This document shows positions 5,414 to 52,212 of a DNA stretch of 61,246 nucleotides, piece after piece. The stretch is taken from IMG/VR virus record IMGVR_UViG_3300044251_000017, positions 1-61,246 of that record. One strand, 5' to 3'. The translations under genes were made by a program, and so were the position numbers. This stretch comes from a virus (lineage: Duplodnaviria > Caudoviricetes). Each line of letters begins with the position of its first letter. Within the stretch, counting starts at the first letter, position 1. The notes below the pieces were generated by a model, which was not told the origin of the DNA, ran no database searches, and worked only from the letters and a program-made list of their open reading frames with translations.

Positions 5414-5656
5414 CTAGCCTTCGGTGATCATCTCGGCGTGCTCGGCAATCCACTCGGGCGTGAACTCGGTCCAATCGGTCACCGTGCCGACCACGAAATA
5501 CGGTTCGGTGTTGAGCGTGGCCCATACGGTCCGGCCGTCGTCACCAAGATTGGCCCATCCGTGAATGCCAGTCGCGGTCTCAAGGTGGTAGCCCCGCGAA
5601 CCCTCGGGGGCGTAGTCCGGGGCAGTGGCGATGATGGTGTTCGTCGTCTTGGTCAT
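5414..5656 (-). CDS. Hypothetical protein (leaderless)
   Basis: ATG 6 nt after TATGAT -10. Confidence 0.7.
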   Translation of the reverse strand: MTKTTNTIIATAPDYAPEGSRGYHLETATGIHGWANLGDDGRTVWATLNTEPYFVVGTVTDWTEFTPEWIAEHAEMITEG

Positions 5657-5662
5657 ACTCAT

Positions 5663-5691
5663 ATCATACCCCCCAATATAGGGGGATGCAA
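5663..5691 (-). promoter_or_regulatory. Promoter TTGCAT-17-TATGAT with C5-N6-G5 box as spacer
   Basis: TTGCAT ccccctatattgggggg TATGAT. Confidence 0.85.
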
Positions 5692-7489: not shown

Positions 7490-7518
7490 ATGTTACCCCC
7501 CATATTGGGGGGACGCAA
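7490..7518 (-). promoter_or_regulatory. Promoter TTGCGT-17-TAACAT with box
   Basis: TTGCGT ccccccaatatgggggg TAACAT. Confidence 0.85.
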
Positions 7519-8578: not shown

Positions 8579-8607
8579 ATCGTACCCCCCATTTTGGGGG
8601 GAGACAA
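8579..8607 (-). promoter_or_regulatory. Promoter TTGTCT-17-TACGAT with box
   Basis: TTGTCT ccccccaaaatgggggg TACGAT. Confidence 0.85.
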
Positions 8608-11132: not shown

Positions 11133-11194
11133 AATCTATCCCCCCGATACGGGGGTGTCAACCACTTGCATCCCCCCAATTCGGGGGGTATGAT
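11133..11194. promoter_or_regulatory. Back-to-back divergent promoters, each with a box in the spacer
   Basis: Minus: TTGACA-17-TAGATT; plus: TTGCAT ccccccaattcgggggg TATGAT. Confidence 0.85.
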
Positions 11195-16003: not shown

Positions 16004-16235
16004 CGAGCGCCTCCGGGTTGACCTGCTGGTAGCGCGCGACGGACGCGTTGGCGTGCATCGCGGCGAGGTCCAGCGCGTCGAGGCTCTTGGTCTTGGCGTC
16101 ACCCTCGATGAGCAGGGCGTTGATCCACTTGGCGAGTTCGTGGACGTGCGTGCGGATCTGCTCGTGCGCGGCGACGATGTCCGCGCTGGACGGCGGGTGG
16201 TACGCGAATCGCTCGGCGAGTTCGGCGCTGTTCAT
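15990..16235 (-). CDS. Acb2/Tad1-like helical-hairpin protein
   Basis: RFAYHPP...HEQIR...KSLDALDLAAMHANASVAR. Confidence 0.6.
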   Translation of the reverse strand: MNSAELAERFAYHPPSSADIVAAHEQIRTHVHELAKWINALLIEGDAKTKSLDALDLAAMHANASVARYQQVNPEALDGRD

Positions 16236-18811
16236 GAGAGTCCCCTCTTGTGGATCCAGTTCTCTTGCACGGCCACCATGGCGTCACGCTGGTCCCGCGT
16301 GCGTTGAGCGGTCGTCCCCGTGCGCCCGGCGGCATCGTCGAGGTCTGCGAGCATCCGCTCGTTGCGCATCGACTCGGTCTCGGTGGCCACGTCCGCCGCG
16401 GCCACCTCGGTCGCCTCGTCCACCGCCCACGCCATGACGTAGTCACACATGCAGCCGTTGTGGTCGCCCGGCTGCATGAACAGGCCCACCCACTCGTAGC
16501 CGGGCGGGGGCTTGAGCTCGGGGTCCTCGAAGCCGGCGAACCGGCGGCCGGCGAGGTGGAGGTGCGGCTCGAACGCGCGGACCCGGTCGGTGATGCCGTA
16601 GCGCCAGGTGAACCCGAGCGGCTCGGCCTGGTGAGAGATCACCCGGACAATGTCGTCGCCGGTCGCCAGGCCACCGCCCATCGAGTCGCCCCCGCCGATC
16701 TCGGTCAGCGCCTCGCGCACGTCGCCCGGCAGCACGAGGGTGTCGGGCACCTCGCCGCGCAGTTCGTCGCCCTGGCGCCCGTACATCTTGTCCAGCGCGC
16801 GCTTCTTGAGCGAGCCCTCGAACCGCTTCCAGGCGCTCGGAATGCGCGAGGTGAGCGACTGCGCGAGCGTGGCTTGCGAGGTGAGCGAGATCGGAACGAG
16901 CTTGGCCGCGGCCTTGATGGCGGTCTTGATCGCTCCCGCTGTCCACTTCGCGAACTGAGTAGACAGGATGGCGAACGCCGCGGCGAGCAACGCGTCCTCG
17001 GCCAACCCGAGCTCGGCTATCCGCGCCTGCCCGAGCGTCTCCCCCACGGTCATCGCGTCGGCGCCCTTAACCAGTACGGCCATCGAGCTGTGGTTGGCGG
17101 CCTTGGCCTTGATGCGGTTACCGGCCTTCTCGACGGCGCGCAGCACGGCGTCATCCCCTGCCTGGCGCAGGCGCTCCCGTAGCGCCCGGTCGATCTCGGC
17201 GAGCACCTCGGCCGTGATGATGGCCGGCTCGGGCGCGGCACTGGCCACCTGCGGGACCGGCTGCCGCGGGGTCGTGCCGGGTGCGGCGCCGGGACCGATC
17301 TGCGCAGGCTGGTCGTCGCGGACGGCCTGCCCCTGGATGACCTGCGGGACCGGTGCGGGCTTGGGTTCCTTGAGCCCGAGCAGGATCGTGGCGAGCTGCG
17401 CGGCCACGTCCGGGGAAGACGAGGTCGACTTGATCATCTGGATCTGCCGGAGGTCGTCCTCGTCCGGCGCGTCCTCGTCCGAGAAGCCCTTGGCGTCGCG
17501 GTAGGCCTTGAACGAGATGGCGCCCTTGTCCATCGCCGAGTCCGCGTCCGCCGAGCGGTTCGCGTTCTCGGTGACGTTGCCCGCGTCGTACCAGATCTGG
17601 ACCGACAGGGCCTCGTCCTTGGTGAGGCCGTAACCGCCGTTCGCCTCGGGCAGGCGCAGCTTGCGGCGGAAGTAGCTCATAGTCAGCGAGTCGACGATCA
17701 TCCGCACGTCCGGCTCGATGTAGTTCTTGAACGTCGAGGCGTCGATCAGCCACCCCGTCCAGTGGTTCACCGAGCTCATCGAGCTGCCCGAGTCGCCGGT
17801 GCCCATCATCTCGCTCGGCAGGTTGATGCCGTCCGCGATGCGCATGAGGGCCGCCGTCTGCTTGTTGAGCAGCTCAGGTGAGGTCTCGCGCTCGAACGTG
17901 ACGTGCCGGAACTCCTTGAGATCCTCGGCGTCGCCGCGCAGCACCATCGGCACGATCGCCCCGGCGTCACCCTCGTTGTTGATGGGCGAGGTCATGCCCG
18001 CGGTGAAATCAGCCTGGAAGGTGTCCGTCTCGGGCTCGGCGGCGTCCGGCTCGGCGGTCTTGGAGAACGACAGTTCGTTGGGCACGAGCACGATGCCGTT
18101 GGCGGCGATGCGAGACCGGGCCGCGGCGCGCAGCTCGCGCCCGATGAGGATCACGTCCTCGCACACGTCCATCATCAGCCGCATCGGCGAGTCGGCCAGA
18201 CCGGACCACTGGGGGTGCGGCACCCACAGCCGGATGAGTGCCTCGGTCGTGACGTTGATCGGCCGGGCTGCCTTGCCGGGGATCTCGACGATGCCGAGCC
18301 CGCCGGTGGACGGGATGACCTCGCTCGTGGATCGGACCTTCCACTGCTCGTCCCCGTCGGCGTCCTCGAAGCCGTGCAACCAGCACTCGCCGGCGATATC
18401 GAAGCCCTGCGAGATCATGCCCTGAAAGCTGTAGCCCTCCTCGAACGGCAGCGAGGCCAGGCAGTCAATGGCGGCGTCGATGACGTGCTGATCGAGGACC
18501 GGCTTGTCGTCCTCGTCTACGTCCTCTGTCGGGTCGCCGGTGAGCTTGCGAGGTTCGTCGTCACCGGTCGACACCGCAGCGGCCACGAACTTGACCTTGG
18601 AGATGATGTTGGCTTTGAGGCGCAGCGCCGCGCCGAGCTCGCCGATGTTGTCCCGGTAGTTCCAGGCGATCGCCTGCCAGGCCATCTTGGTGGCCGACAG
18701 GGTGCTGACGACGTTGCGGTCTTGCAGGTCGATGACCATGCCCGAGGCGGTGAACCCGCGGGTGTTCTTGCTCGGCGTCGCCTTGCGCTGCCTGTTCCAG
18801 AACGAGGACAT
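16232..18811 (-). CDS. Portal protein with MuF-like C-terminal extension
   Basis: IAGECW, RLWVPHP..SGLADSP, SRIAANG, NHWTGW; C-terminal H..L.G...PGDHNGCMC. Confidence 0.85.
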   Translation of the reverse strand: MSSFWNRQRKATPSKNTRGFTASGMVIDLQDRNVVSTLSATKMAWQAIAWNYRDNIGELGAALRLKANIISKVKFVAAAVSTGDDEPRKLTGDPTEDVDEDDKPVLDQHVIDAAIDCLASLPFEEGYSFQGMISQGFDIAGECWLHGFEDADGDEQWKVRSTSEVIPSTGGLGIVEIPGKAARPINVTTEALIRLWVPHPQWSGLADSPMRLMMDVCEDVILIGRELRAAARSRIAANGIVLVPNELSFSKTAEPDAAEPETDTFQADFTAGMTSPINNEGDAGAIVPMVLRGDAEDLKEFRHVTFERETSPELLNKQTAALMRIADGINLPSEMMGTGDSGSSMSSVNHWTGWLIDASTFKNYIEPDVRMIVDSLTMSYFRRKLRLPEANGGYGLTKDEALSVQIWYDAGNVTENANRSADADSAMDKGAISFKAYRDAKGFSDEDAPDEDDLRQIQMIKSTSSSPDVAAQLATILLGLKEPKPAPVPQVIQGQAVRDDQPAQIGPGAAPGTTPRQPVPQVASAAPEPAIITAEVLAEIDRALRERLRQAGDDAVLRAVEKAGNRIKAKAANHSSMAVLVKGADAMTVGETLGQARIAELGLAEDALLAAAFAILSTQFAKWTAGAIKTAIKAAAKLVPISLTSQATLAQSLTSRIPSAWKRFEGSLKKRALDKMYGRQGDELRGEVPDTLVLPGDVREALTEIGGGDSMGGGLATGDDIVRVISHQAEPLGFTWRYGITDRVRAFEPHLHLAGRRFAGFEDPELKPPPGYEWVGLFMQPGDHNGCMCDYVMAWAVDEATEVAAADVATETESMRNERMLADLDDAAGRTGTTAQRTRDQRDAMVAVQENWIHKRGLS

Positions 18812-19258: not shown

Positions 19259-19599
19259 CGGGTCTCCTCGGAATGATCTTTGATGATGCGGGCACAGGCA
19301 TCTCGCGGTGGCTCCACGCCGACGATCATGGCTTGGCGGGCTACGGCGTCACGCGGCACGGGCGCGAGCAGCGGGTTGGGGATCAAGCCTCGCTCGAACT
19401 CGCGACGGCCTTCTTGCTCGCGGACCAACCGGCCCCACTCGCCGCCGGGCACCTCGTAGTTGATCGTCGCCATTTCCGCCTGCTCGCACCGGTCGCCGAT
19501 CGAGCCGGCCCGGACATGCCACGCCTGCTTGGTCAACTCGAAGCGCCCGCACGTCGGACACCAGTACCCCTCGATGCTGTCGGGCGGCAGCTCGGTCAT
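19255..19599 (-). CDS. Hypothetical protein
   Basis: CPTC; overlaps neighbours. Confidence 0.55.
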   Translation of the reverse strand: MTELPPDSIEGYWCPTCGRFELTKQAWHVRAGSIGDRCEQAEMATINYEVPGGEWGRLVREQEGRREFERGLIPNPLLAPVPRDAVARQAMIVGVEPPRDACARIIKDHSEETR

Positions 19600-19889
19600 G
19601 CGCTCCACGCTTTCTCGATGGCGGCAAGGGCGGCCTCGCCCTGCTTGGCCAGATTGCAGGTCGGGCAGGTGTCCTTGAAGTCGTGATCATGATCCGGGCA
19701 GGTCCACGAGATCTCCACGAGCGTGGCCTCGGCAGCGTGCAAAGCGGCTATGTCAAGCTCGGCCTGCTCGCGCAGCGCGGCGAGGTCTCGCATGGCCCGC
19801 CGGCGCACGCGGTCCGGGCGCAGCCAAAAGAACATGATCCAGTTCCCGATGATGGCGACCCACACTGCCCACTCAAGCGCCTGTTTCAC
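19596..19889 (-). CDS. Hypothetical membrane/Zn-binding protein
   Basis: GTGA overlap; TM; CPDH..CPTC. Confidence 0.55.
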   Translation of the reverse strand: MKQALEWAVWVAIIGNWIMFFWLRPDRVRRRAMRDLAALREQAELDIAALHAAEATLVEISWTCPDHDHDFKDTCPTCNLAKQGEAALAAIEKAWSA

Positions 19890-20080
19890 GCCGTGCACCC
19901 CATCTCGGCGAGCAGGCCGCGCCAGGCGGACCGGATGGCGGTGTGTTCGTCCGTGTCCTCGGCGGTCGCCGTCGCGCCGGTGGGGACGTGCACGAGTTCG
20001 ATCTTGATCGTCTTGGCCGTGATCAGCTGCCACGAGGTCGCCCGGCAGTCCTGCGGCTCGGGCCGGGTCACGGTGTCCAC
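19886..20080 (-). CDS. Hypothetical protein
   Basis: AAGGAGG RBS; LVHVPTG motif. Confidence 0.6.
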   Translation of the reverse strand: MDTVTRPEPQDCRATSWQLITAKTIKIELVHVPTGATATAEDTDEHTAIRSAWRGLLAEMGCTA

Positions 20081-20331
20081 TCCTCCTTGGGCTTGCCGTC
20101 GGCGTCCAGCCGGGTGACGCGCAGTCCGTACGCCTCGGCCCCCGGTGTCGGCTCACCGAAAGGGCGCACGGGCCGGGTGCCGCTCGGTGCCGTGATCCGG
20201 GTGTAGGTGGTGTACATGCCGTCCTCGTCCACGATCACGATGACCCATGGCATGTGTGGGTCGTCCGTGATTTTGAAGGCGAGCAGGCCGCCGTCCTCGG
20301 ACATGCGCACGTCGAGTGATCGATCGGTCAT
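20068..20331 (-). CDS. Hypothetical protein
   Basis: ATGA overlap. Confidence 0.55.
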   Translation of the reverse strand: MTDRSLDVRMSEDGGLLAFKITDDPHMPWVIVIVDEDGMYTTYTRITAPSGTRPVRPFGEPTPGAEAYGLRVTRLDADGKPKEEWTP

Positions 20332-20657
20332 GCCGGGACCGGCCAGGGCGAGGTGTTCGTGGCCCACGCGGGAATCCAGCGGGACATGCCACCGCACTTG
20401 CAGCCGCCGGTGGGGGTGACCACGGCGAGGCCCTCGATGGTCTCGAAGTCGATGCCGTTGTTGCGGACCTGCATGTCCGGTTGCGGGGTCTGCGTGAAGT
20501 CGATCTCGGCTTGCCACTGCGGGGTGACGCCGTCCTCGGGCTTGCGAGTGAAGACCTTGAGGCCCTCGTCCGTCGCATAGACACGGGCCCGGTGGATCAC
20601 GGACTTGTCCGGCAGCAACACGGTGGCCGGGAACCATTGCGCGTAGATCAAGGTCAT
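20328..20657 (-). CDS. Hypothetical protein (leaderless, GCKCG)
   Basis: ATG 6 nt after TAGGAT. Confidence 0.7.
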   Translation of the reverse strand: MTLIYAQWFPATVLLPDKSVIHRARVYATDEGLKVFTRKPEDGVTPQWQAEIDFTQTPQPDMQVRNNGIDFETIEGLAVVTPTGGCKCGGMSRWIPAWATNTSPWPVPA

Positions 20658-20663
20658 GGGGTC

Positions 20664-20691
20664 ATCCTAGTCTCTCCCCCTGCAATGGGGG
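20664..20691 (-). promoter_or_regulatory. Offset-box promoter (box 6 nt upstream of TAGGAT)
   Basis: cccccattgcaggggg-agagac-TAGGAT-6 nt-ATG. Confidence 0.65.
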
Positions 20692-20699
20692 TAGATGCA

Positions 20700-20746
20700 G
20701 GAAAGACCCCTGCCGATGCTCAATGAGCGCGGCCCGGGGCCTTTCC
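20700..20746. terminator. Intrinsic terminator
   Basis: GGAAAGACCCC...GGGGCCTTTCC. Confidence 0.7.
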
Positions 20747-20870
20747 TTAACTCGGTTGAGGGAGCGGCGCCAGGGCCCTCGCCTCCGGTATTGCGAGCAG
20801 TCATCTCGGGGGAGAGTCCTACTCGATCACGGACTTGCGGGCCGGGGAACCACTGTCGAACCTCGTAAAG
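20746..20870 (-). ncRNA. Candidate structured ncRNA 1
   Basis: Between box promoter (TAGCTT 20878-20873) and terminator; end-to-end stem plus inner hairpins; no credible ORF. Confidence 0.55.
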
Positions 20871-20872
20871 CC

Positions 20873-20899
20873 AAGCTATCACACCCCCCGTATTGGGGG
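20873..20899 (-). promoter_or_regulatory. Offset-box promoter
   Basis: cccccaatacgggggg-tgtga-TAGCTT. Confidence 0.6.
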
Positions 20900-20902
20900 C
20901 AA

Positions 20903-21370
20903 CTACTTCGCTCCGTCGAGCAGGCTCTTGACCGTCTCGGCGGCCTCGGTGGCGTCGAGGATCTTGTCATCGTCCTCGACACTGTCATCCAGCACGAGCA
21001 CCTTGTCCACAAGGTCGACCACCGCTACACGGAGTTCTTCCGCGGTAGCCGTCATTTCAGCGAACGTCGCGACGGTGGCCGGATTCGAGAACATCGCGAA
21101 CGCCGGCATGGCCGCCCCCGTCACGGTCAGGACAGCGCCGTGCATCTCGCGCAAGGTGTCGTGGTCGCCCCGGCGCTTGGCCTCCTCGGCAAGCTCGGAC
21201 TGCGCGCGGGCACGCCAGGGCCCGCGGCTGGTGGTCGACAGCTCGGACCAGACAGCACTAGTCATGCGATCGAGAGGAGGGACGTTGTAGAACTCGGCGT
21301 ACAGCTGCTCGGCGCGGCGCTCTACGTCCATGGCGGGCACAGTGGCCTCGGGTTCGTTAGGCATGATCAT
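20903..21370 (-). CDS. Hypothetical protein
   Basis: AAAGGA RBS. Confidence 0.65.
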   Translation of the reverse strand: MIMPNEPEATVPAMDVERRAEQLYAEFYNVPPLDRMTSAVWSELSTTSRGPWRARAQSELAEEAKRRGDHDTLREMHGAVLTVTGAAMPAFAMFSNPATVATFAEMTATAEELRVAVVDLVDKVLVLDDSVEDDDKILDATEAAETVKSLLDGAK

Positions 21371-21382
21371 TTCCTTTCGGGG

Positions 21383-21874
21383 TTAGCGGAACACACTCAT
21401 GATCGAACGCCAGATTCGGCGCCACATCGACTCGGGCCACTCGCGCCAGATGCCGACGGCGTCCCACACGGGCTGCTCGGACAGGTGTGCGCCGCGCAGG
21501 CGCCACGAGGTCATGGTGAGCGTCTGGCCGTCATCCTCGGCCTGGAGTAGGTCCACGTCCACGCCGACCCCGAGGTGCTCGTGGTCCAGCAAGTCGCGGT
21601 AAAACCTCGGGTGCGCGGCCTTGAGCATGTCGAGGTTGATCCAGCCGGACGCCTTGAGCACGCTGCCCGAGCCGCCAAGGAACACCTCCTCGATCACGCC
21701 GACGGGCAGCGGCGCACCGGGCGGGTCCGTCACGCTGTAGAGCACGAGCGGCATGCCCATGGTCTGGATGCCGTGCTCGGGCAAGGCGAGGATGCGGTTG
21801 TCCCGGGACATCAGCCCAAGGTGCGCGAGGTCGCCGTGCCACTGGACGATCCGGTAGCCGAGTGAGTGCCTCAC
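21383..21874 (-). CDS. Stand-alone paralog of the head protease domain, probably inactive
   Basis: SRDNR...MPL...VGVIE...GVGVD...QPVW aligns by eye with TADGR...LPI...MGKLD...GNSID...IPAF. Confidence 0.55.
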   Translation of the reverse strand: MRHSLGYRIVQWHGDLAHLGLMSRDNRILALPEHGIQTMGMPLVLYSVTDPPGAPLPVGVIEEVFLGGSGSVLKASGWINLDMLKAAHPRFYRDLLDHEHLGVGVDVDLLQAEDDGQTLTMTSWRLRGAHLSEQPVWDAVGIWREWPESMWRRIWRSIMSVFR

Positions 21875-22026
21875 GCGAGTTCCTTCCAATCTGCGGGCAC
21901 GCCGATCACGAGGCGCTCACCAAGATCGATCGAGTTCACCTCGAAGATTTCGGACTCGGGATCGCACTGGTAGCGGAGGGCCTGCCCATCGGGCGAGCGC
22001 CACACGCGAATGATGCCCTCGGCCAT
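21871..22026 (-). CDS. Hypothetical protein
   Basis: Start/stop overlaps on both sides. Confidence 0.55.
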   Translation of the reverse strand: MAEGIIRVWRSPDGQALRYQCDPESEIFEVNSIDLGERLVIGVPADWKELA

Positions 22027-22409
22027 CACGGCCTCGCAACGATGTCGTAGTGAGCGATCAGGGCGTTGAGCACCTGCGCGGGGGTGTAGGGCTCGGCGGA
22101 CGAGGCGAGCGGTGGGAGCGAGTCCGTGACCCAGTAGAGCGCCTCGGCGTGGCTGACCTTGCGCATCGTCGCACCCTGCGCGGGCTCGGCCGGAACCTCG
22201 GGCAGCACGAGGCCGTCCGGGCTGTCGGTTGGCGCGGCGGGTGTCATCGGAAACCAGATCTTCCGGCCGTCGTCCTCGGCGAGTTCCCACCGCTTACGGC
22301 AGCGTCCGCCGTCGAGCTTGGCCGTGCACTCCCACACCGTGCCGACCTTGAGCGGCCACTTGAGCGGCAAGATGCACTCGTGGGCCTTGGGCAGCTTAAT
22401 GACTCCCAT
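22026..22409 (-). CDS. Hypothetical protein
   Basis: HECILP...GTVWEC...CRKRW. Confidence 0.6.
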   Translation of the reverse strand: MGVIKLPKAHECILPLKWPLKVGTVWECTAKLDGGRCRKRWELAEDDGRKIWFPMTPAAPTDSPDGLVLPEVPAEPAQGATMRKVSHAEALYWVTDSLPPLASSAEPYTPAQVLNALIAHYDIVARP

Positions 22410-22692
22410 GATCAGGTTCCCTCTCCTTTGCACAGTTGCACAGCGGGTCGTCGCAGTCGCATTCCTCGTCCGCCTCGACGTGGTCACACTCGGGGCAGCG
22501 CAAGGCGTCCTCGATGTAGGCGGGCCATCCCTCGCGGCGGGTCTTGCTCGGCGGCGTGTCGGCGTACTCGTGGCACACGCAGTCGACGTGCTGACATCCG
22601 CAGTTCTCGATGAACGACTTGTGCCCGCAGTCGTGGCAGGTGGACAGCTTGTCGAGCTTGCCCTCGATCCAGGTGCCGAGTCCCATGATCAT
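22396..22692 (-). CDS. Cys-rich Zn-binding protein
   Basis: Two CxxCxH...C..C.C units. Confidence 0.6.
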   Translation of the reverse strand: MIMGLGTWIEGKLDKLSTCHDCGHKSFIENCGCQHVDCVCHEYADTPPSKTRREGWPAYIEDALRCPECDHVEADEECDCDDPLCNCAKEREPDHGSH

Positions 22693-22847
22693 TTGACCTT
22701 GTCGCGTCGGGCATCCCGGACGTTTCCGGGGGCGATGCCGCGCGCGGTCGCCATCCGGTCGGCGTCGGTGCGCTGCGCCTCGATGTTCTGGTGGTCAGCC
22801 TTGACCTCGCGCCGCTCGGCGGCCGTGAGGCGGATCCCCTTAGACAT
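22689..22847 (-). CDS. Small basic protein
   Basis: AAAGGAG RBS directly after ncRNA 2. Confidence 0.6.
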   Translation of the reverse strand: MSKGIRLTAAERREVKADHQNIEAQRTDADRMATARGIAPGNVRDARRDKVK

Positions 22848-22864
22848 GTACTGCTCTCCTTTGA

Positions 22865-23022
22865 AGTACCGGCCTTCACGGCGGGGTGGCGACGCGTCCG
22901 AGATTCGCCTACGGAGTGAGAAAGATTCGGCGCTTACCTGCGCCACGCTCCGCTCGGGACCCTGGAGTCTCACTTGGCTGGTGAGTTCGTCGGTGGCCCC
23001 GACCCCGCTGTGAAGTTGTACT
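22865..23022 (-). ncRNA. Candidate structured ncRNA or 5' leader 2
   Basis: Starts at box promoter; long closing helix AGTAC/GTACT, CTTCAC/GTGAAG, GCGGGGT/ACCCCGC, CGACG/CGTCG with four inner hairpins. Confidence 0.65.
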
Positions 23023-23025
23023 CAT

Positions 23026-23054
23026 ATCATACCCCCCATATTGGGGGGACGCAA
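23026..23054 (-). promoter_or_regulatory. Promoter TTGCGT-17-TATGAT with box
   Basis: TTGCGT ccccccaatatgggggg TATGAT. Confidence 0.85.
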
Positions 23055-23057
23055 GCC

Positions 23058-23396
23058 CTAGGCCACCCTGACGCCGGTGTTCGATCGGCCAGGCTGCGAA
23101 CGGTGATGGCGCATCGCCCGGCTCGGCTCGCGCGACAGGTCCGGCACAGCTGCGATCGCCGGCGGGGGCGCGCAGCCCTGGACCGGCTGCCTGGCGAGCC
23201 ACCGGCGCGTCTTGCCGGACGTGCCACCCCAGACGCCGTATCGCTCGTTGTTCGCCAAGGCAAAGAGCAGGCACTCCACCCGCAGGTCGCAGCCAAAGCA
23301 CAGCCGGACCGCGGTGTAGCTCGCGGCGCCCTGCTCGGGGAACCACGTCTCGGGATCGGTCTCCGAGCACAGCGCGGTAGACCGATCGAGGGTCAT
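23058..23396 (-). CDS. whiB: WhiB-family transcription factor (second copy)
   Basis: LCSETDPETWFP...CFGCDLRVECL...YGVWGG. Confidence 0.9.
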   Translation of the reverse strand: MTLDRSTALCSETDPETWFPEQGAASYTAVRLCFGCDLRVECLLFALANNERYGVWGGTSGKTRRWLARQPVQGCAPPPAIAAVPDLSREPSRAMRHHRSQPGRSNTGVRVA

Positions 23397-23650
23397 GGCG
23401 TCTCTCGCAGCGCCTCGGCGATCGCCTCGCCAAGACCTTCGAGCTGATCTCTGGCCATGATGAGAGCAATGCTGCCGCCGAGCGGCAGGTCCGCGCAGTG
23501 CCCGCGCAGGCGCACGAGGTGAAAGCATTCTTCGGACTGGTCCACTCCGGCAGTGTCGATAAAGACCGCACGGCCGCTCTCCACAGTCACCTCGTGCGGG
23601 CAGAGGGCGTGTGCGGGAACGTCGAGCATCTTGCGGTCGTCGGCAGGCAT
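23393..23650 (-). CDS. Hypothetical protein
   Basis: Operonic, ATGA overlap. Confidence 0.6.
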   Translation of the reverse strand: MPADDRKMLDVPAHALCPHEVTVESGRAVFIDTAGVDQSEECFHLVRLRGHCADLPLGGSIALIMARDQLEGLGEAIAEALRETP

Positions 23651-23662
23651 GATGATCTTCTT

Positions 23663-24076
23663 TCAGATGGGGTGCGGCAGCTTCGCGAGCGCCGGACCGT
23701 TGATGGCTTCGATGCTCCACAGCGCCAGCGTGGTGCCGTAGACGCCGTAGCGGTCCACGAGTTCGTCCCGGGCGACCTCGGCAAGGTCGCGGTTGTCGTC
23801 CGGCCAGACGAGGAACTCGATCAGCGTGCCCGAGAAGTCCGCACGGTAGGCCTCGCGGTCTTCCTCCTCGTAGCGCGTCCAGTCCGTGTACGTCCCGGAC
23901 ACCGGCTTGCCACCGAGCGCCTCGGGCGGCAGGTCGTAGGCCGCCTCGCTTTTGTGGTTGCGGACCGGCTTGGCCTTGGTCGCCTCGGTGATCTTGGCGG
24001 CGATGACGCGGCGGACCTGCCCCGACTTCCGGGGCTTGGGCCGCCGCGCCGTCTTCCGCCGTCGCTTGGTGGTCAT
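23663..24076 (-). CDS. Hypothetical protein with basic N-terminus
   Basis: ATGA overlap. Confidence 0.65.
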   Translation of the reverse strand: MTTKRRRKTARRPKPRKSGQVRRVIAAKITEATKAKPVRNHKSEAAYDLPPEALGGKPVSGTYTDWTRYEEEDREAYRADFSGTLIEFLVWPDDNRDLAEVARDELVDRYGVYGTTLALWSIEAINGPALAKLPHPI

Positions 24077-24348
24077 ACCAGCCGTGCTCGCTGCTCGTCC
24101 GGCAGGTAGTTGTTATGCACCCACCGGTCCACGCGCGCGCTCCACGTCTCGTTGGCGGCGTTGCCGTGGCCCAGGTAGATCCGGATGCCCAGCTCGACTA
24201 CGTCCACTTTGAGTTCGAGCAGCTCGCCGTCGACAACGTGACTGGCGTACGTCTGGCATTGCGCGAGTTCCGCGCATCCGATGCGCATCTCCTCAGTGGG
24301 CGTTGCGTCGGCATACTGCGCGAGGGTGTACTCGTCCCGGTAGGTCAC
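24073..24348 (-). CDS. Hypothetical protein
   Basis: GTGA overlap. Confidence 0.6.
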   Translation of the reverse strand: MTYRDEYTLAQYADATPTEEMRIGCAELAQCQTYASHVVDGELLELKVDVVELGIRIYLGHGNAANETWSARVDRWVHNNYLPDEQRARLV

Positions 24349-24674
24349 GCGAACACCCCCGACAACGCCTCGATGTCCTCGGGCAGGGCGCGAAACTCGT
24401 CCGGGTAGCGGTAGGCGTAGCGGTCGTAGCTCGCCATGGGCAGCACGTCGGACTCGGCCGTGAGCGCCCATAAGTCCGAGGCGTCCTTGACGAACACGAC
24501 CACGTAGGCACCTCGCCACGTCTGCCCGTTGAGGATGTCGTCCACGATGACCACGCGGGCCTCGTCCGCCTTGTCGTTACGTCCGGGGTCCGGCGTGCAG
24601 TCGACGCCGTCCTTGGTGTACTGCCACGCCCACGTCTGGCCCTCGGGTGCCTGGTCGATGATTCGATCTTGCAC
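24345..24674 (-). CDS. Hypothetical protein
   Basis: GAGGAGG RBS after box promoter. Confidence 0.7.
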   Translation of the reverse strand: MQDRIIDQAPEGQTWAWQYTKDGVDCTPDPGRNDKADEARVVIVDDILNGQTWRGAYVVVFVKDASDLWALTAESDVLPMASYDRYAYRYPDEFRALPEDIEALSGVFA

Positions 24675-24701: not shown

Positions 24702-24730
24702 ATCATACCCCCCGAATTGGGGGGACGCAA
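24702..24730 (-). promoter_or_regulatory. Promoter TTGCGT-17-TATGAT with box
   Basis: TTGCGT ccccccaattcgggggg TATGAT. Confidence 0.85.
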
Positions 24731-25246: not shown

Positions 25247-25275
25247 ATCATACCCCCCAATACAGGGGGACACAA
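25247..25275 (-). promoter_or_regulatory. Promoter TTGTGT-17-TATGAT with box
   Basis: TTGTGT ccccctgtattgggggg TATGAT. Confidence 0.85.
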
Positions 25276-25321: not shown

Positions 25322-25348
25322 CCCCCAATACAGGGGGTCGGATACGCT
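25322..25348 (+). promoter_or_regulatory. Offset-box promoter of the transfer-like operon
   Basis: cccccaatacaggggg-tcgga-TACGCT-6 nt-ATG. Confidence 0.7.
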
Positions 25349-25354
25349 TAGGCG

Positions 25355-25591
25355 ATGAGGATACGAACCGTCATCGCGCTTGCCGCCGTCATCGCGGTCG
25401 GCGTCTCGATCACGACCGGGGACGCGGTACTCGCGGCCGGGGTCATCGTGCTGTACGTGGTCCAGCTGTTCATTCGCGACGCGGTCCAACGGCGGTCCCG
25501 CGAGGACGCCTGGAACGCGGTCCGCTACAACGTCATGTCGTCGGACATCGATCCAGCAGCCCGGTGGTCTCGTCGGGGCGGTGATGAGTGA
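25355..25591 (+). CDS. Small 2-TM membrane protein (leaderless)
   Basis: Two hydrophobic helices; first gene of plus-strand operon. Confidence 0.65.
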   Translation: MRIRTVIALAAVIAVGVSITTGDAVLAAGVIVLYVVQLFIRDAVQRRSREDAWNAVRYNVMSSDIDPAARWSRRGGDE

Positions 25592-26019
25592 TGCCGATCG
25601 CCAACTACACCTCCGAGGTGAGCGCGGTCCGGTCCGCCGACGAGATCCAAAAGATGCTCGTGCGGACCGGGGCACGCGGGGTGGTCCAGGAATACAACGA
25701 GACCGGTCGCATGGTCTCAATGTCCTTCACCATCGTGCGGTCCGGGACCACGATGGGCTTCACGCTGCCAGTGAGGTCCGAGGCGGTCCGCCAGGTGCTC
25801 ATCCGACAAAAGGTCCCGCGCAAGTTCCAGACGCTCGTACACGCAGACCGCGTCGCCTGGCGCATCCTGCGGGACTGGATTCGCGCGCAGATGGCGATCA
25901 TCGAGACGGAGATGGTCTCGATCGAGCAGGTCATGCTTCCGTACATGCGTACAGATGATGGCTCCACGGTGTTCGAGCGCTACGAGACCACGCGGGCGTT
26001 GCCTGCGGGGAAGGTCTGA
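25588..26019 (+). CDS. Conserved-looking phage hypothetical protein
   Basis: NYTSEV...EIQKML...RVAWRILRDWIRAQ...LPYM. Confidence 0.75.
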   Translation: MMPIANYTSEVSAVRSADEIQKMLVRTGARGVVQEYNETGRMVSMSFTIVRSGTTMGFTLPVRSEAVRQVLIRQKVPRKFQTLVHADRVAWRILRDWIRAQMAIIETEMVSIEQVMLPYMRTDDGSTVFERYETTRALPAGKV

Positions 26020-26021
26020 TC

Positions 26022-26843
26022 ATGGCCACGCCTGCCCGCGGCGCCCGGTTCGTCGCAACGTTCGGTTTCGCGTTCGGGTCTCTCGTCTCGATCGCCGCCA
26101 ACGTCCTGGCCGAGCGCATCCCGCCTGCTCCCACGCCTCTCGGCTGGACGCCGGCGCTCGATGCGCAGCTCGGCGCCCCCGTCTGGCCGATCGCCCTCCT
26201 GCTCGCCGTCGAGGCGCTCACCCGAATCCCCTGGCCCAAGGGTCTCGGCTGGCTGGCCGCGCGCTACCTCGGCGTGACCGGCGTCGCGGTGTTCGCCGGG
26301 GTGATCTCCTACTTCCACATCCACGATGTGCTCGTCTCGTGGCGGTACCAGCCGTTCGCCGCGAGCGTCGGACCGCTCGTCATTGACGGCCTCATGGTGG
26401 TCTCGGGTGTGGGCCTCATGGCACTCGCCAAGGTCCGCGAGGGCGAGTCGGACCTTGTGGTCCAGAACCACGGTCTCGTGTCGGACCGGCCAGTCGAGCG
26501 GTCCGCGGTCCGGGACTCGGTCAATGGTCCGGTCCCGGACCTCGACGATGGTCCGGCCGTCGACTGGACCCCGGTCCCGAGCGAGCGCGCCGAGCCGGTC
26601 CCGGACCGCAGTACCGAGCCGGTCCGCATCCAGCGGCGGTCCGCTGCCGCGAGCAAGACGAGGACCACCCGGACCGCGCGCCCGGTGACCGCGTCGGTAC
26701 CAACCGATGACGAGATCTCGGCGTTCATCCGAACCGCTGAGACCGCGCCCACCAAGCGGTCCGTCATGAGCAAGTACGGCGTCGGGTCCGGCAGGGCCCT
26801 GCGACTGATCAACGAGGCCAAGGAGGCCGAGACCAATGGGTAA
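26022..26843 (+). CDS. DUF2637/Spd-like membrane protein with C-terminal HTH-like domain
   Basis: SIAANV, ISYFHI, GPLVIDGL, 4 TM; Pro/Arg linker; PTKRSVMSKYGVGSGRALRL. Confidence 0.7.
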   Translation: MATPARGARFVATFGFAFGSLVSIAANVLAERIPPAPTPLGWTPALDAQLGAPVWPIALLLAVEALTRIPWPKGLGWLAARYLGVTGVAVFAGVISYFHIHDVLVSWRYQPFAASVGPLVIDGLMVVSGVGLMALAKVREGESDLVVQNHGLVSDRPVERSAVRDSVNGPVPDLDDGPAVDWTPVPSERAEPVPDRSTEPVRIQRRSAAASKTRTTRTARPVTASVPTDDEISAFIRTAETAPTKRSVMSKYGVGSGRALRLINEAKEAETNG

Positions 26844-28773
26844 GAAGTCTCAGGGAGGTGCGCTCGATGTCGCAGGCGGGGTGATCCTCGCCAAGCTCGG
26901 ATTGTGGCTCGCCGGCAAGCTCGGCAAGGGCGTGCGCCGACTCGCGTTCCGATGGCGCCGGGCGCTGTCGCCGGTGTTCTTCGGGTTTGTGGTCTGGCTG
27001 GTCTCGGTCATCGCCAGGGCGCTGGTCCCGCAGTGGTGGGCGGTCGCGCTGGTCCTGCCCGTGTTCGGCATCGCCGTCGCCTGGTTCGGGCCCAAGCTCG
27101 GGGACCGCTGGTCCGCGTTCGTCATGCGCCTGGTCCCCACGGGACTCGACTCGGGCGTGAGCGGCGTGATGGACCGGCCGATCGAGCGCATTTACTTCGG
27201 TTCGCTGGTCTCGCTCATCGGCGTCTACATGGCGGTCCGCATCGGCGCCGGACCGTCCGACTTCACCGGCTGGTTCTGGAAGATCGGCCTGCTGCTCTAC
27301 GGCGGGTCGTGGTGGTACCACCGACGAGTCCGGACCGCGGGCCGGGCGGACCGCTACGCGCGCAAGTTCGTCAAGTTCGCGGACCGGGACCGGTGCCCGG
27401 ACACGCTGCGCCCGTTCATCGGCTGCAAGGTGACCGCGGTCAAGGGCAAGGGCCGGGTCGCCATGCTGACTGTCCGGCTCGCCGAGGGCATGACGGTCGA
27501 TGTCGTCTCACGTCTCACCAAGCCCCTGGCCTCGGCCTTCTCGATGCGGCCGGCCTCGGTGTTCATCAAGGAGGACCCGACCAACGCCCGGTCCGTGGTG
27601 ATCACCTTCCTGCCGTCGGACCCGTGGAAGGGCAAGATCGATCACCCGATGCCCGAGCCCGGCACGATCTCGCTCAAGTCGGTGGCCAAGCGGTTCGCCA
27701 TGGGCCTCTACGCCGACGGCCGCGAGCTGCTCTACGACTTGCAGCACACCTTGGTGGTCGGCCAGACCGGCTCGGGCAAGTCGATCTGGCTGCATAGCCT
27801 CATGACCTGGCTGACCGCCTGCTCGGACACGATCATCGTGGCCATCGACATGGCCGGTGGGGCGACCCTCGGTGTGTGGCGGAAGTGCCTGGCGCTGCCG
27901 CTCGCGGACGATCTGGCCTCGGCCATCGTGATCCTCGAAGCCGTCTTCAACGTGATCAAGGATCGTGAGCGGGCGCTCGGCAAGGCGTCCGAGGAGGACG
28001 ACGACGCCGCGGACAGCTTCGAGCCGTCGGCCAAGACGCCGTGGCTCATCCTCGTGATCGACGAATTCCCGGACCTGCTCGCCGAAGCCAAGGCCACGAG
28101 CAGGGGCGATAACCAGGGAACCTACGAGAAGGTGATCAACAACCTGTTGATGCGCATCGGCAAGAAGGCGCGCAAGTGCGGGGTCCGTTTGATCTTCGCG
28201 TCGCAGAACGGCACCAAGCCGGACCTCGGCTCGAAGGAACTTCAGGCCCAGTTGCGCGCCGTCGTCGGCCTGGCCCTCGACGCACAGCAGTCCCGCAACC
28301 TCTGGCAGTCTCTCGAACGGCTCGGCTGGAACAGCACCCACCTGCGGGAAGGCCAGTTCCTCTTGCGGGACGACTACCACACCGTGCCCGACGCGGCGAA
28401 GGGGTTCTTCGTCTCCAACCAGGCGCGCCGTCGGCACGTCATGGCCGCCTACGAGCTGCACAAGACCCTCGAACCGTCGGCCTGGCAGGCCCTCTGCGGA
28501 CTGGATGCCACGCTCGTCATGCCCGTGGAGACCGTCGAGCCCGTGGAACCCGTCCTCGATCACCTGCGCGAGCAGGGGCCGGCCAAGGTGGACACGCTCG
28601 TGGACCGCATCGGCGAGATCAGCCGGGCGACCGTGTACCGGCGGCTCAAGGCGTACGCCGAGCAGGGTCTCGTGGTCAACCGCAACGGCACCTGGCGCCT
28701 GCGCAAGGACTCGGATGTGGACGAGTCCGCGCAGGTGGACGAGGGTCCGGACGCAAGCGCGGACGCCGCGTAA
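26836..28773 (+). CDS. traB: TraB-like FtsK/SpoIIIE DNA translocase
   Basis: N-terminal TMs, Walker A GQTGSGKS, Walker B LVIDE, ASQ, C-terminal wHTH ISRATVYRRL...GLV...GTW. Confidence 0.8.
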   Translation: MGKKSQGGALDVAGGVILAKLGLWLAGKLGKGVRRLAFRWRRALSPVFFGFVVWLVSVIARALVPQWWAVALVLPVFGIAVAWFGPKLGDRWSAFVMRLVPTGLDSGVSGVMDRPIERIYFGSLVSLIGVYMAVRIGAGPSDFTGWFWKIGLLLYGGSWWYHRRVRTAGRADRYARKFVKFADRDRCPDTLRPFIGCKVTAVKGKGRVAMLTVRLAEGMTVDVVSRLTKPLASAFSMRPASVFIKEDPTNARSVVITFLPSDPWKGKIDHPMPEPGTISLKSVAKRFAMGLYADGRELLYDLQHTLVVGQTGSGKSIWLHSLMTWLTACSDTIIVAIDMAGGATLGVWRKCLALPLADDLASAIVILEAVFNVIKDRERALGKASEEDDDAADSFEPSAKTPWLILVIDEFPDLLAEAKATSRGDNQGTYEKVINNLLMRIGKKARKCGVRLIFASQNGTKPDLGSKELQAQLRAVVGLALDAQQSRNLWQSLERLGWNSTHLREGQFLLRDDYHTVPDAAKGFFVSNQARRRHVMAAYELHKTLEPSAWQALCGLDATLVMPVETVEPVEPVLDHLREQGPAKVDTLVDRIGEISRATVYRRLKAYAEQGLVVNRNGTWRLRKDSDVDESAQVDEGPDASADAA

Positions 28774-28860
28774 GTGCGCTCGTCTCACGGTCGCAGGTAT
28801 CAGCGCCCGTACGTAACGTGCGCAGACGGGTGAGATCATCCGCGATTTGAGACGATCAAG

Positions 28861-28877
28861 CCCCCTGAATCAGGGGG
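28861..28877. promoter_or_regulatory. Box variant CCCCCTGAATCAGGGGG
   Basis: C5-N7-G5 palindrome downstream of traB. Confidence 0.6.
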
Positions 28878-28905
28878 ACAGAGTGTACTAGACGGTACAA
28901 ACAGA

Positions 28906-28948
28906 GGCCCCGAACCCGGACGAATCTCATCCGGGTTCGGGGCTTTCT
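28906..28948. terminator. Intrinsic terminator between convergent operons
   Basis: GCCCCGAACCCGGA...TCCGGGTTCGGGGC-TTTC. Confidence 0.8.
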
Positions 28949-28954
28949 CGTTGA

Positions 28955-29326
28955 TCACGCCTTGCGTCGTGACTTCCGTGGGCGCGCCTCGACACGAGAC
29001 CAGCGGTCCAGCGCCTCGCGGCCCCTGTCGTTGAGCAGGAGGGAGGTCGGCCGGTCCAGCGCGGCGTCATACTCCCCTGCCCGTTCGGCCGTGCTGGTCA
29101 AGTACCGGTGCAACGCCAGGTCACGCAGCGCGCCGGTCAAGTCCGGGTCCACCAATTCGAGGTCGCCAAGGCTCGGCTCGTAGGTGAAGGTGCCGCGGAT
29201 GTCCGGGATGCCCGGCACGAGCACGAGCTCGTGCTCGGCGACCAGGCGCAGCGCGGCCAGCCGGCGCCTGGTCTTGACCAGGGCGAGGTGGTCGTCCACG
29301 TACGGGCGCTTCTCGATGTCACTCAT
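28955..29326 (-). CDS. Hypothetical protein
   Basis: GAGGAGG RBS. Confidence 0.65.
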   Translation of the reverse strand: MSDIEKRPYVDDHLALVKTRRRLAALRLVAEHELVLVPGIPDIRGTFTYEPSLGDLELVDPDLTGALRDLALHRYLTSTAERAGEYDAALDRPTSLLLNDRGREALDRWSRVEARPRKSRRKA

Positions 29327-29799
29327 GCTGTCGTCCTCCTCGTGATTGCCGTGGTGATGGTCCGCTCGGCGGGCATCCGGTGCCCGGGGTGTAGCCGGTG
29401 CAACGCCTGGCCCACCGCCTCGGTCGCGATGACCCGGTGGCGCGGCTCAACCTCGCCGCCGTCGAACAGCGCGAGCACCTCGACGAACTCGGCCACGAGG
29501 TCCGCGATGGCCGAGAGCTGCATCGGGAGGCTCCTCACGCCGCGGCGCGCCCTGCCGAGTTGCCCGCCGGTTTCCATGTTGCAGGGGTTGCAGCACGGTC
29601 GGATGTTCGCTCGGCGGTACGTCCCACCGAGACAGCCCGGGAAGATCCGGTCGGCCGTGATGGTCTTCTCGTCCAGCGGGGTGGCGCAGCGGTAGCACGG
29701 CGCCGTAGTGCCGTCACCGAAGTGGGTGAGCAGCCAGGCCCGACGGATGCGTCGCTGCTTGGACCCGCCTCGGCGGTTCCGGTTGGTGGTGCTGGTCAT
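29323..29799 (-). CDS. HNH-like endonuclease
   Basis: CYRC...ADRIFPG.LGGTY...NIRPCCNPCN. Confidence 0.75.
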   Translation of the reverse strand: MTSTTNRNRRGGSKQRRIRRAWLLTHFGDGTTAPCYRCATPLDEKTITADRIFPGCLGGTYRRANIRPCCNPCNMETGGQLGRARRGVRSLPMQLSAIADLVAEFVEVLALFDGGEVEPRHRVIATEAVGQALHRLHPGHRMPAERTITTAITRRTTA

Positions 29800-33048: not shown

Positions 33049-33077
33049 ATGCTACCCCCCATAACGGGGGGACGCAA
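33049..33077 (-). promoter_or_regulatory. Promoter TTGCGT-17-TAGCAT with box
   Basis: TTGCGT ccccccgttatgggggg TAGCAT. Confidence 0.85.
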
Positions 33078-33090
33078 TAGAACACGCGTG

Positions 33091-33582
33091 CTACGCGGTC
33101 TCCCCGAGCATCCGCCGTTTGCGGATCACCTTCTGTACCGTGCCGCAATCCTCGCGGTACATCCGGCCGCCCGGCGAGCGCCACCGGCCATCGGACATCC
33201 GGGTCCAGTCCGCCGGAGAATGCACGTCCGTGCGCTCGGTGCGGTTCGCCGGCGCCTGCCACTGCCGGGTGGTCGCGAGCGGATCCGAGTTGTCCACCTC
33301 GGTGAGCGCGTCGAGCTCGTAGTCCTCGCCCTTCCACCGGCTGTACGCGGCCACCTGCGCCTCGGTGAACGCCGACGACAGGCCATCGAGGATCTGCCGG
33401 GAACCCGAGGCGACCACCGCCCACCCGCGCGCCTGCGGTGTCGAGATGCGGACCTTGCCGTCCGGCATCACGTCGAGGCGCAGATCGAGCGAGCGGACCC
33501 GGTGGGGCGTGCTCAACGGCGGCCCCACGATCCCGTCGGGCCCGAGTCGATGCGTCTCACCTTGACGCCGGATCTCGGTCAT
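33091..33582 (-). CDS. Hypothetical protein downstream of terminase
   Basis: ATGA overlap; HSPADW...DGRWRSPGGR. Confidence 0.7.
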   Translation of the reverse strand: MTEIRRQGETHRLGPDGIVGPPLSTPHRVRSLDLRLDVMPDGKVRISTPQARGWAVVASGSRQILDGLSSAFTEAQVAAYSRWKGEDYELDALTEVDNSDPLATTRQWQAPANRTERTDVHSPADWTRMSDGRWRSPGGRMYREDCGTVQKVIRKRRMLGETA

Positions 33583-47995: not shown

Positions 47996-48024
47996 ATCAT
48001 ACCCCCCATATTAGGGGGATGCAA
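47996..48024 (-). promoter_or_regulatory. Promoter TTGCAT-17-TATGAT with box
   Basis: TTGCAT ccccctaatatgggggg TATGAT. Confidence 0.85.
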
Positions 48025-52183: not shown

Positions 52184-52212
52184 ATCGTACCCCCTGTAAT
52201 GGGGGGACACAA
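52184..52212 (-). promoter_or_regulatory. Promoter TTGTGT-17-TACGAT with box
   Basis: TTGTGT ccccccattacaggggg TACGAT. Confidence 0.85.

Follow-up and report, generated by a model that had tools for sequence, protein, structure and literature searches.

The minus strand of IMGVR_UViG_3300044251_000017, a complete virus record of 61,246 bp (CheckV 100%, G+C 67%) analysed here at its full length and called the window, holds between two protein genes an intergenic stretch (20658-20902) that on balance appears to be a stand-alone, terminated gene for a structured small RNA (sRNA) of about 175 nucleotides (nt) in an uncultivated actinophage. In the proposed model, host RNA polymerase with its principal sigma factor would start at a box-type promoter, P1 (20873-20902), and make a 109-nt rod-shaped hairpin RNA. 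Transcription would end at a GC-rich hairpin with a U-rich 3' side, and a second promoter, P2 (20664-20691), would then start the next gene, of 109 amino acids (aa), afresh as a leaderless mRNA. The RNA itself would act in trans, the mode thought most likely being that of a protein-binding scaffold or decoy rather than of an antisense RNA. Transcription, both RNA ends and the mode of action are inferred from the sequence, and an independent terminated sRNA is the simplest reading because the 109-aa gene has its own start signal and a hairpin stands between the two units. The initial annotation had already proposed a separate non-coding unit made of promoter, structured RNA and terminator, a proposal favoured by the separate P2 downstream, synteny, compensating changes and the lack of a coding signal. 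For the regulatory or decoy role that it also suggested, searches of the phage gave neither a target nor a partner.

The predicted RNA, running from A20866 to the U-rich tail (20692-20866), has a minimum free energy fold of -82.4 kcal/mol, consisting of an unbranched rod (20754-20862), which is an imperfect hairpin of 109 nt and 36 bp, then a 6-nt linker and the terminator-like hairpin (20699-20747). The segment 20692-20872 folds with z = -3.0, none of 200 shuffles being as good, while the rod by itself reaches z = -2.2 (3 of 200 shuffles as good). At the base of the rod, 5 nt from the predicted 5' end, lies the bulged helix GGUU(C)GA / UCAACC, in which the C is bulged, and the blocks of conserved sequence along the rod are GUGAUC, AAUACC and CUCCCUCAACC. 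The biggest internal loop in the rod is of 5 x 5 nt.

A search of IMG/VR with the portal protein gave seven loci, two of them close, L005 (70% identity) and L011 (60%), on contigs of 60.5 and 61.3 kb, respectively. The parts follow one order in the window, L005 and L011: a 155-aa gene, P1, about 180-190 nt without a shared open reading frame (ORF), a hairpin, P2 and the 109-aa gene. When folded separately as single sequences, all three give a rod plus hairpin, with z = -3.0 in the window and -5.1 and -3.1 in the relatives. For a shape test, a set rule defined the segment as running from the predicted +1 up to the last base ahead of the hairpin; one unbranched hairpin covers 95-98% of it in the three phages, a result matched by only 3, 2 and 6 of 500 dinucleotide shuffles.

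The pairing of the rod can be followed between the window and L005, whose rods are 52% identical when aligned. In the independent L005 fold, 34 of the 36 window pairs recur within one column, the mapping being made on a sequence-only alignment. As a control, the residues of L005 that differ were permuted among the differing columns, which preserves identity, conserved columns and composition; the mean was 2.8 recurring pairs and the maximum 30, and 0 of 1000 permutations reached 34. The reciprocal test, starting from the L005 pairs, gave 35 of 40, again with 0 of 1000. On a model-fitted alignment, both sides have changed in 6 pairs, compared to 3.1 in shuffles (9/500) and 0-3 when the partners were slid. 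These two alignable sequences show the predicted base pairing of the rod to be under selection and kept via compensating changes. A covariance model made from both scores the window at 122 bits and L005 at 108 bits.

This fold differs in part from the one first drawn for the locus. The end-pairing stems GGTT/AACC, AGTGG/CCGCT and GGCCC/GGGCC are found in the minimum free energy structure, while the outermost stem, CTTTAC/GTTAAG, is not confirmed: it contains a U-U mismatch, and transcription predicted to start at A20866 would probably leave out its 5' arm. The inner junction, with its hairpins AGTCC/GGACT and CTCC..CGAG/CTCG..GGAG, is not supported, as it folds at -73.4 kcal/mol, 9 kcal/mol worse than the continuous rod, and is not conserved in L005.

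Regarding coding potential, the stretch does not appear to encode a protein. Its G+C by codon phase is flat (0.64/0.66/0.64), compared with third-position values (GC3) of 0.83-0.91 in the neighbouring genes, and all three translated frames differ among the phages, with stops in L005 and L011. The overlapping 71-aa ORF (20667-20882), for which the initial annotation had also seen no credible coding role, has 0.61/0.61/0.65 by phase and starts inside P1; failing the codon-phase and frame-conservation test, it leaves no credible ORF in the stretch.

P1 belongs to a promoter family that recurs in this genome. The family is recognised by a GC palindrome, the box, with 21 matches on both strands of the window against 0.22 expected, a count reached by 0 of 100 shuffles; a scripted table resolves them into 19 distinct sites. 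In 16 of the 19, a TAnnnT hexamer lies 0-7 nt from the G run, always on one strand only, and in 11 of those 16 an ATG follows 6-8 nt further, the start of an ORF that has 40 aa or more and a GC3 above 0.75. An ATG 6-8 nt past the -10 is the layout of leaderless mRNAs, in which transcription would start at the A of the ATG, and such mRNAs are established for actinobacteria. The usual form of the family is TTGCRT-box-TATGAT, in full TTGCRT-CCCCCC(N5)GGGGGG-TATGAT, in which the spacer between -35 and -10 is filled by the palindrome, which looks like an operator for a dimeric regulator. Examples of box sites are 5669-5685, 7496-7512, 8585-8601, 11172-11188, 23032-23048, 24708-24724, 25253-25269, 33055-33071, 48002-48018 and 52190-52206, and the same box promoter family was found in L005, L011, L016 and L020. 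The leaderless genes starting at 5654, 7482, 8572, 11201, 25238 and 52176 have near-identical first codons, ATGACCAAGACGAC, ATGAACGAGACGAC or ATGACCACAAAGACG (M-T/N-K/E-T-T), representing either paralogous small proteins or a conserved initial transcribed or translated signal.

In P1 itself, a -35 TTGCCC (20902-20897) is followed by the palindromic box CCCCCAATACGGGGGG (20899-20884), a TGn element (TGa, 20881-20879) and the -10 TAGCTT (20878-20873), so that both the box and the -10 hexamer proposed earlier stand where they had been placed, the latter with a TGn ahead and 18 nt after TTGCCC. As TTGCCC-18-TGa-TAGCTT, it is a predicted promoter of the sigma-A/sigma-70 type (a -10 TAnnnT with a -35 at 16-19 nt and/or TGn). 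Three sites have the hexamer 5-6 nt past the box, namely the leaderless gene at 25322(+), P2 and P1; the box-5 nt-TAnnnT geometry of P1 is that of the leaderless promoter at 25322(+), but with ACG in place of ATG. From this geometry and the leaderless spacing, +1 is predicted at A20866 and the RNA at about 175 nt. The relatives have TTGCCC-18-TGc-TAGGGT (L011) and TGa-TACGCT (L005), so that TGn plus -10 are common to the three phages and the -35 to two of them.

The persistence of these promoter signals bears on another explanation, namely that the rod is a processing or stability element of the 155-aa gene mRNA, an RNase III-type site or a 3'-end protection, with the box at 20884-20899 being just an operator or small hairpin. 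A 36-bp imperfect duplex with internal loops, intergenic and straight after a stop codon, would suit such a role; in addition, the upstream ORF of L005 extends into the box, and intergenic RNase III sites of phages are well known. However, TGn and -10 would not need to be kept in 3 of 3 phages (and the -35 in 2 of 3) for that role, nor would 16 of 19 boxes in the genome be tied to a one-strand -10 hexamer, and the phage has no RNase III gene, though the host enzyme could act. This explanation is therefore held to be quite improbable.

P2, the promoter of the next gene, is composed of the box CCCCCATTGCAGGGGG (20691-20676), AGAGAC and a -10 TAGGAT (20669-20664), with 6 nt to the ATG at 20657. 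The layout is the same in the relatives, TAGGAT-gacgcg-ATG in L005 and TACGAT-gactag-ATG in L011, so that the -10 stands exactly 6 nt before the ATG in 3 of 3. Since each of the three phages thus provides the 109-aa gene with a -10 at leaderless spacing, P1 is left without an obvious product but this RNA. The terminator-like hairpin between them (20747-20699; 49 nt, GC-rich) has a 3' arm and tail reading GGGGUCUUUCCUGCAUCU and folds at -33.3 kcal/mol. Hairpins of different sequence stand at the same place in L005 (-40.8 kcal/mol) and L011 (-31.4 kcal/mol), each with a U-rich 3' side and followed by UUCUCUGCGUGU or UUUCUGCGUGU. Of the intrinsic terminator of the initial annotation, the strong hairpin is confirmed, while its U tract is imperfect and a generic scan does not call it.

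Those features also allow the stretch to be seen as a cis-acting 5' leader or attenuator, in which P1 transcripts read on into the 109-aa and portal-proximal genes and the rod plus hairpin would set the extent of read-through, working either as a conditional terminator or in antitermination, as a put-like or Q-like module. The succession of promoter, short non-coding RNA, strong hairpin and portal/head block recalls lambdoid late-promoter units, and on a read-through transcript the AGGA that precedes the ATG by 7 nt in the window and L005 could function as a Shine-Dalgarno sequence. Against it stand the leaderless-spaced -10 that the 109-aa gene has in each of the three phages and the lack of a Shine-Dalgarno sequence ahead of the ATG of the L011 homologue. 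By inspection, moreover, there is no conserved antiterminator pairing the 3' arm of the rod with the 5' arm of the hairpin, both being C-rich in L005. The leader or attenuator is considered unlikely.

The leader is also opposed by the distribution of the parts, since the pair of terminator and promoter before the 109-aa gene is kept in relatives without the RNA. Homologues of the 109-aa protein are 66% identical in L005 and 46% in L011, and further scans gave 16 more distant loci, 13 of them with a 109-aa homologue. The portal alignment in metagenome contigs, which gave 13 more distant loci, brought no further case of the RNA. In the distant upstream regions examined, a canonical terminator and then a -10-like hexamer precede the 109-aa homologue directly after a protein gene, with no rod; in L022 and L018 the hexamer is 6 nt ahead of the ATG. 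As these distant loci keep the terminator-promoter pair, it appears to be ancestral. The unit of predicted P1 plus rod is specific to the window phage, L005 and L011. As seen in L014, L016, L018, L020-L022, L025, L026 and L029, the canonical terminator before the 109-aa homologue is always strong, with the -10-like hexamer (TACGAT, TACCAT or TATGCT) within about 10 nt, and L022 has a leaderless layout too (TACCAT-gcacgc-ATG).

Other routes to more members of the family gave little. Viral-contig scans with either flanking protein alone gave no match, as did the exact box-plus-promoter pattern and the alignment of the 109-aa protein against metagenome contigs and genome contigs, and the P2 pattern matched only L005 and L011. 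The pattern TTCGAYAGTGNNTNNCCGGC occurs at 26 viral loci and at least 120 genome loci (80 listed); run on 25 new viral loci and on 10 actinobacterial ones of the 80 listed genome loci, the covariance model gave two matches only, with E of 0.4 and 0.95, which are taken as chance, and so are the matches of the TTCGAYAGTGNNTNNCCGGC pattern.

Centre to centre, the P1 and P2 boxes are 208 bp apart in the window (20884-20899 and 20676-20691), 218 bp in L005 (5266-5281 and 5484-5499) and 223 bp in L011 (4673-4689 and 4896-4912), about 20-21 helical turns, and such spacing could allow looping by a box-binding protein. The stretch might act as DNA, either as paired box operators for looping or as a cruciform or origin, which the similar folding of the other strand would also fit. 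However, looping needs no pairing in the spacer, yet the pairing is kept by compensating changes; no turn of the GC skew was found near 20.8 kb in a check for an origin, and promoter, hairpin tail and all neighbouring genes have the same direction. A DNA-level element is thus regarded as extremely improbable.

The unusual geometry common to P1 and P2, with the box 5/6 nt from TAnnnT, raises a further explanation, in which the stretch is a decaying, functionless relic of a duplicated leaderless gene, that is, of P2 and the first ~120 nt of the 109-aa gene, with the ATG now ACG. On the minus strand, the RNA (20837-20825) and the 109-aa gene (20607-20595) share CAAGTCCGTGATC, an exact direct repeat of 13 nt, and the RNA has a collinear local alignment with the first ~120 nt of that gene (score 33.8, reached by 0 of 300 shuffles; z = 4.7), the L011 RNA matching the same gene region more weakly (z = 2.1, 15/300). 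When compared to real genomic windows, this similarity is unremarkable, ranking 3 of 1097 in one scoring and 288 of 24,312 in a global one, where L011 ranks 691 and L005 17743. In addition, a hidden Markov model (HMM) of the gene family found nothing in the translated intergenic regions (<=0 bits), no rod forms when the 5' part of the 109-aa gene is folded, and 34 of 36 pairs at 52% identity are more than a neutral relic would retain. A functionless relic is accordingly given little probability. Duplication origin and present function are compatible, and the repeat and the patchy similarity hint at such an origin, the statistics being weak.

Several results weigh against an independent sRNA gene and must be set beside the evidence above. 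The fold does not tell the strand, since in L005 and L011 the antisense strand folds with a similar or better free energy and the antisense consensus has z = -2.1; the strand was assigned from the way in which promoter, hairpin tail and genes are oriented. With RNAalifold, the consensus of the raw MAFFT alignment has z = -1.6, matched by 29 of 500 column shuffles; a difference of one column between the registers keeps it from significance, and the consensus of the three-way alignment has z = +0.2. The covariance model of window and L005 finds no L011 RNA at E <= 10, and in L011 the GUGAUC motif is on the opposite arm of the rod, so that L011 backs the architecture only and not homologous pairs. 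Only three genomes carry the element. As for the signals, P1 of L005 has no -35, and the U tract is imperfect or interrupted (UCUUUCCUGCAUCU) and lies partly within the 3' arm of the hairpin. A generic sigma-70 scan calls no promoter anywhere in 19500-24500; it uses the stricter E. coli consensus and calls none of the box promoters. Similarly, the hairpin at 20747-20699 is not called by a generic terminator scan, whose thresholds are a loop of 3-8 and 5 or more T in 8. Because these scans are silent, the promoter and terminator calls rest on the repeated pattern of the phage itself and not on a general predictor. Finally, the antisense target search within the phage found no extended complementarity or conserved target, and protein searches of the phage found no TROVE, RNase III or double-stranded RNA-binding domain (dsRBD) protein.

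The last two results also guide the choice of a mode of action for the putative sRNA. The complementarity search gave one 13-mer, which is the direct repeat in the 109-aa gene and not a target, four 12-mers and 24 11-mers, and a lone 13-mer is about what random sequence would give. The bases identical between the window and L005 are clustered in the basal bulged helix GGUU(C)GA / UCAACC, the adjoining CUCCC, GUGAUC/AAUACC and CCGGC; GUGAUC and AAUACC face each other across a small internal loop, and the helices between the clusters hold the compensating changes. No conserved single-stranded seed was found between these two sequences. Clustered identity, covarying helices and the lack of seed and target suggest that a protein scaffold or decoy fits better than antisense action. 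As the phage has no such protein, the partner would have to come from the host or be a phage protein without a recognised family.

The rod could even be a phage mimic of a host RNA-protein ligand. In the boldest form, it would be a minimal Y-RNA-like decoy, perhaps derived from the leaderless-gene duplication, which captures Ro60/Rsr (and PNPase) or another dsRNA-binding host protein via GGUU(C)GA / UCAACC; this is a long shot, offered as speculation. If it were true, host RNA decay would be redirected or RNA-sensing defence blunted during infection. To our knowledge, small RNAs of phages infecting actinobacteria are almost unexplored. Actinobacterial hosts are not known to have Hfq, and consequently a conserved, structured and independently transcribed RNA would point beyond the enterobacterial seed-pairing model. 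The locus also packs three predicted parts, a box-regulated promoter, a terminator and a second promoter of the leaderless type, into 250 bp.

A second RNA, at 22865-23022, had been suggested as a possible relative of this one on the basis of a similar topology. The kinship was rejected, as the fold there is three-armed and the covariance model of the rod gives no match. On the minus strand, window positions 22847-23019 are the 5' leader of a 52-aa gene, a structured region of 173 nt folding with z = -2.8. The gene has its ATG at 22846 and the Shine-Dalgarno sequence AAAGGAGAG, and inside the leader lies a terminator-like hairpin plus T tract (22945-22928). This leader is present only in the window phage, the orthologous gene in L005 and L011 having a leader of about 30-45 nt, and may act as an attenuator or represent a second small RNA. 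Given the difference in fold, the missing model match and the leader context, the two RNAs are not shown to be related.

Regarding the phage itself, it is inferred to be an uncultivated phage of an actinobacterium, a host taken from the WhiB gene at ~23058-23390 and from the hosts of its portal relatives. The portal protein search gave 876 actinophage records, all below 60% identity and the best among the matches listed at 24-30%, and no DNA match to the window was found among GenBank phages in near and distant mode. The minus strand carries nearly all window genes. Upstream of the RNA lies the 155-aa gene (20903-21370, minus; GC3 0.83), whose stop TAG (20905-20903) adjoins P1 and whose homologues are upstream of the RNA in L005 and L011; no Pfam or PHROG family was matched. 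Downstream follow the 109-aa gene (20328-20657, minus; GC3 0.91), with its leaderless layout, and a gene block running on to the portal and head genes. The large terminase gene (33579-35372, minus) is about 15 kb from the portal gene (16232-18811, minus). The intervening region holds a plus-strand island (25355-29695), including a 645-aa FtsK/SpoIIIE-like protein with a C-terminal helix-turn-helix (HTH), as well as a series of small genes, among them the one for the WhiB-like regulator, that have box promoters of their own.

Compared to known RNA families, the candidate sRNA stands apart. The whole window has no match to Rfam 15 at gathering score, and at E <= 10 the window, L005 and L011 loci give chance-level matches only, the best being STnc250 (17.5 bits against a cut-off of 42, E = 0.35). 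It thus appears to represent an sRNA family absent from Rfam, with three members so far, all from uncultivated actinophage genomes. The literature searches, generic and unable to show absence, returned no description of this element. Phage sRNA genes having their own promoter and intrinsic terminator are known, such as lambda OOP, P22 sar and prophage sRNAs; they are mostly antisense or seed-pairing RNAs from phages of Hfq-bearing enterobacteria. The window unit resembles them as a short non-coding promoter-terminator unit between protein genes but differs in its probable actinobacterial host, in the lack of target complementarity in the search made and in forming one long rod. The lambda PR'-6S transcript-tR' unit is similar in having a promoter, a non-coding transcript of less than 200 nt and a strong terminator, with genes toward the virion module; however, the gene downstream in the window has its own predicted promoter, there is no sequence relation, and no Q-like antiterminator was noticed in the phage, no search aimed at one having been made. 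6S RNA is a rod-like RNA of ~180 nt formed by end pairing, and its large central bubble imitates an open promoter. The window RNA is also rod-like, of similar size and with paired ends, but has no large central bubble and no Rfam 6S match at gathering score or at E <= 10.

Y RNAs offer a further comparison with the rod. As described by Chen et al. (2014, PMC4201824), they have 80-130 nt, with 5' and 3' ends pairing into a long stem; the sequence that Ro60 contacts, GGUCCGA, belongs to the 5' strand of a bulged helix, the bacterial motif being GNCGAAN0-1G; the Ro60/Rsr (TROVE) gene lies nearby, within 4 kb; and some mycobacteriophages encode Ro60 and YrlA. The window rod has 109 nt, an end-pairing stem and, at its base, GGUUCGA with a bulged C, equal to 6 of the 7 positions of the GGUCCGA given there. 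However, the motif drifts to GUUUCGA in L005 and GGUUCAGA in L011, and a 6/7 match could be chance. In addition, the RNAs of the window type have no tRNA-like T/D arms (ARAGORN found nothing in the whole window) and no large internal loop, no Y RNA or YrlA match was found with Rfam in the three loci even at E <= 10, and the TROVE family PF05731 has no match in the phage at E <= 1, in a search whose controls were detected. The window RNA is accordingly not assigned to the Y RNA/YrlA class.

For the promoters, the nearest comparison is with the Cluster O mycobacteriophages, whose 17-bp dyad-symmetric repeat, TGTTCGGNNNCCGAACA as compared to CCCCCC-N5-GGGGGG in the window, occurs in more than 30 copies per genome (PMC4351075). 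The sections of that paper drawn on here describe neither a repeat between -35 and -10 nor any non-coding RNA unit. Those same sections predict leaderless mRNAs from sigma-A-like promoters, which, together with a repeated dyad, is the combination also seen in the window phage (PMC4351075).

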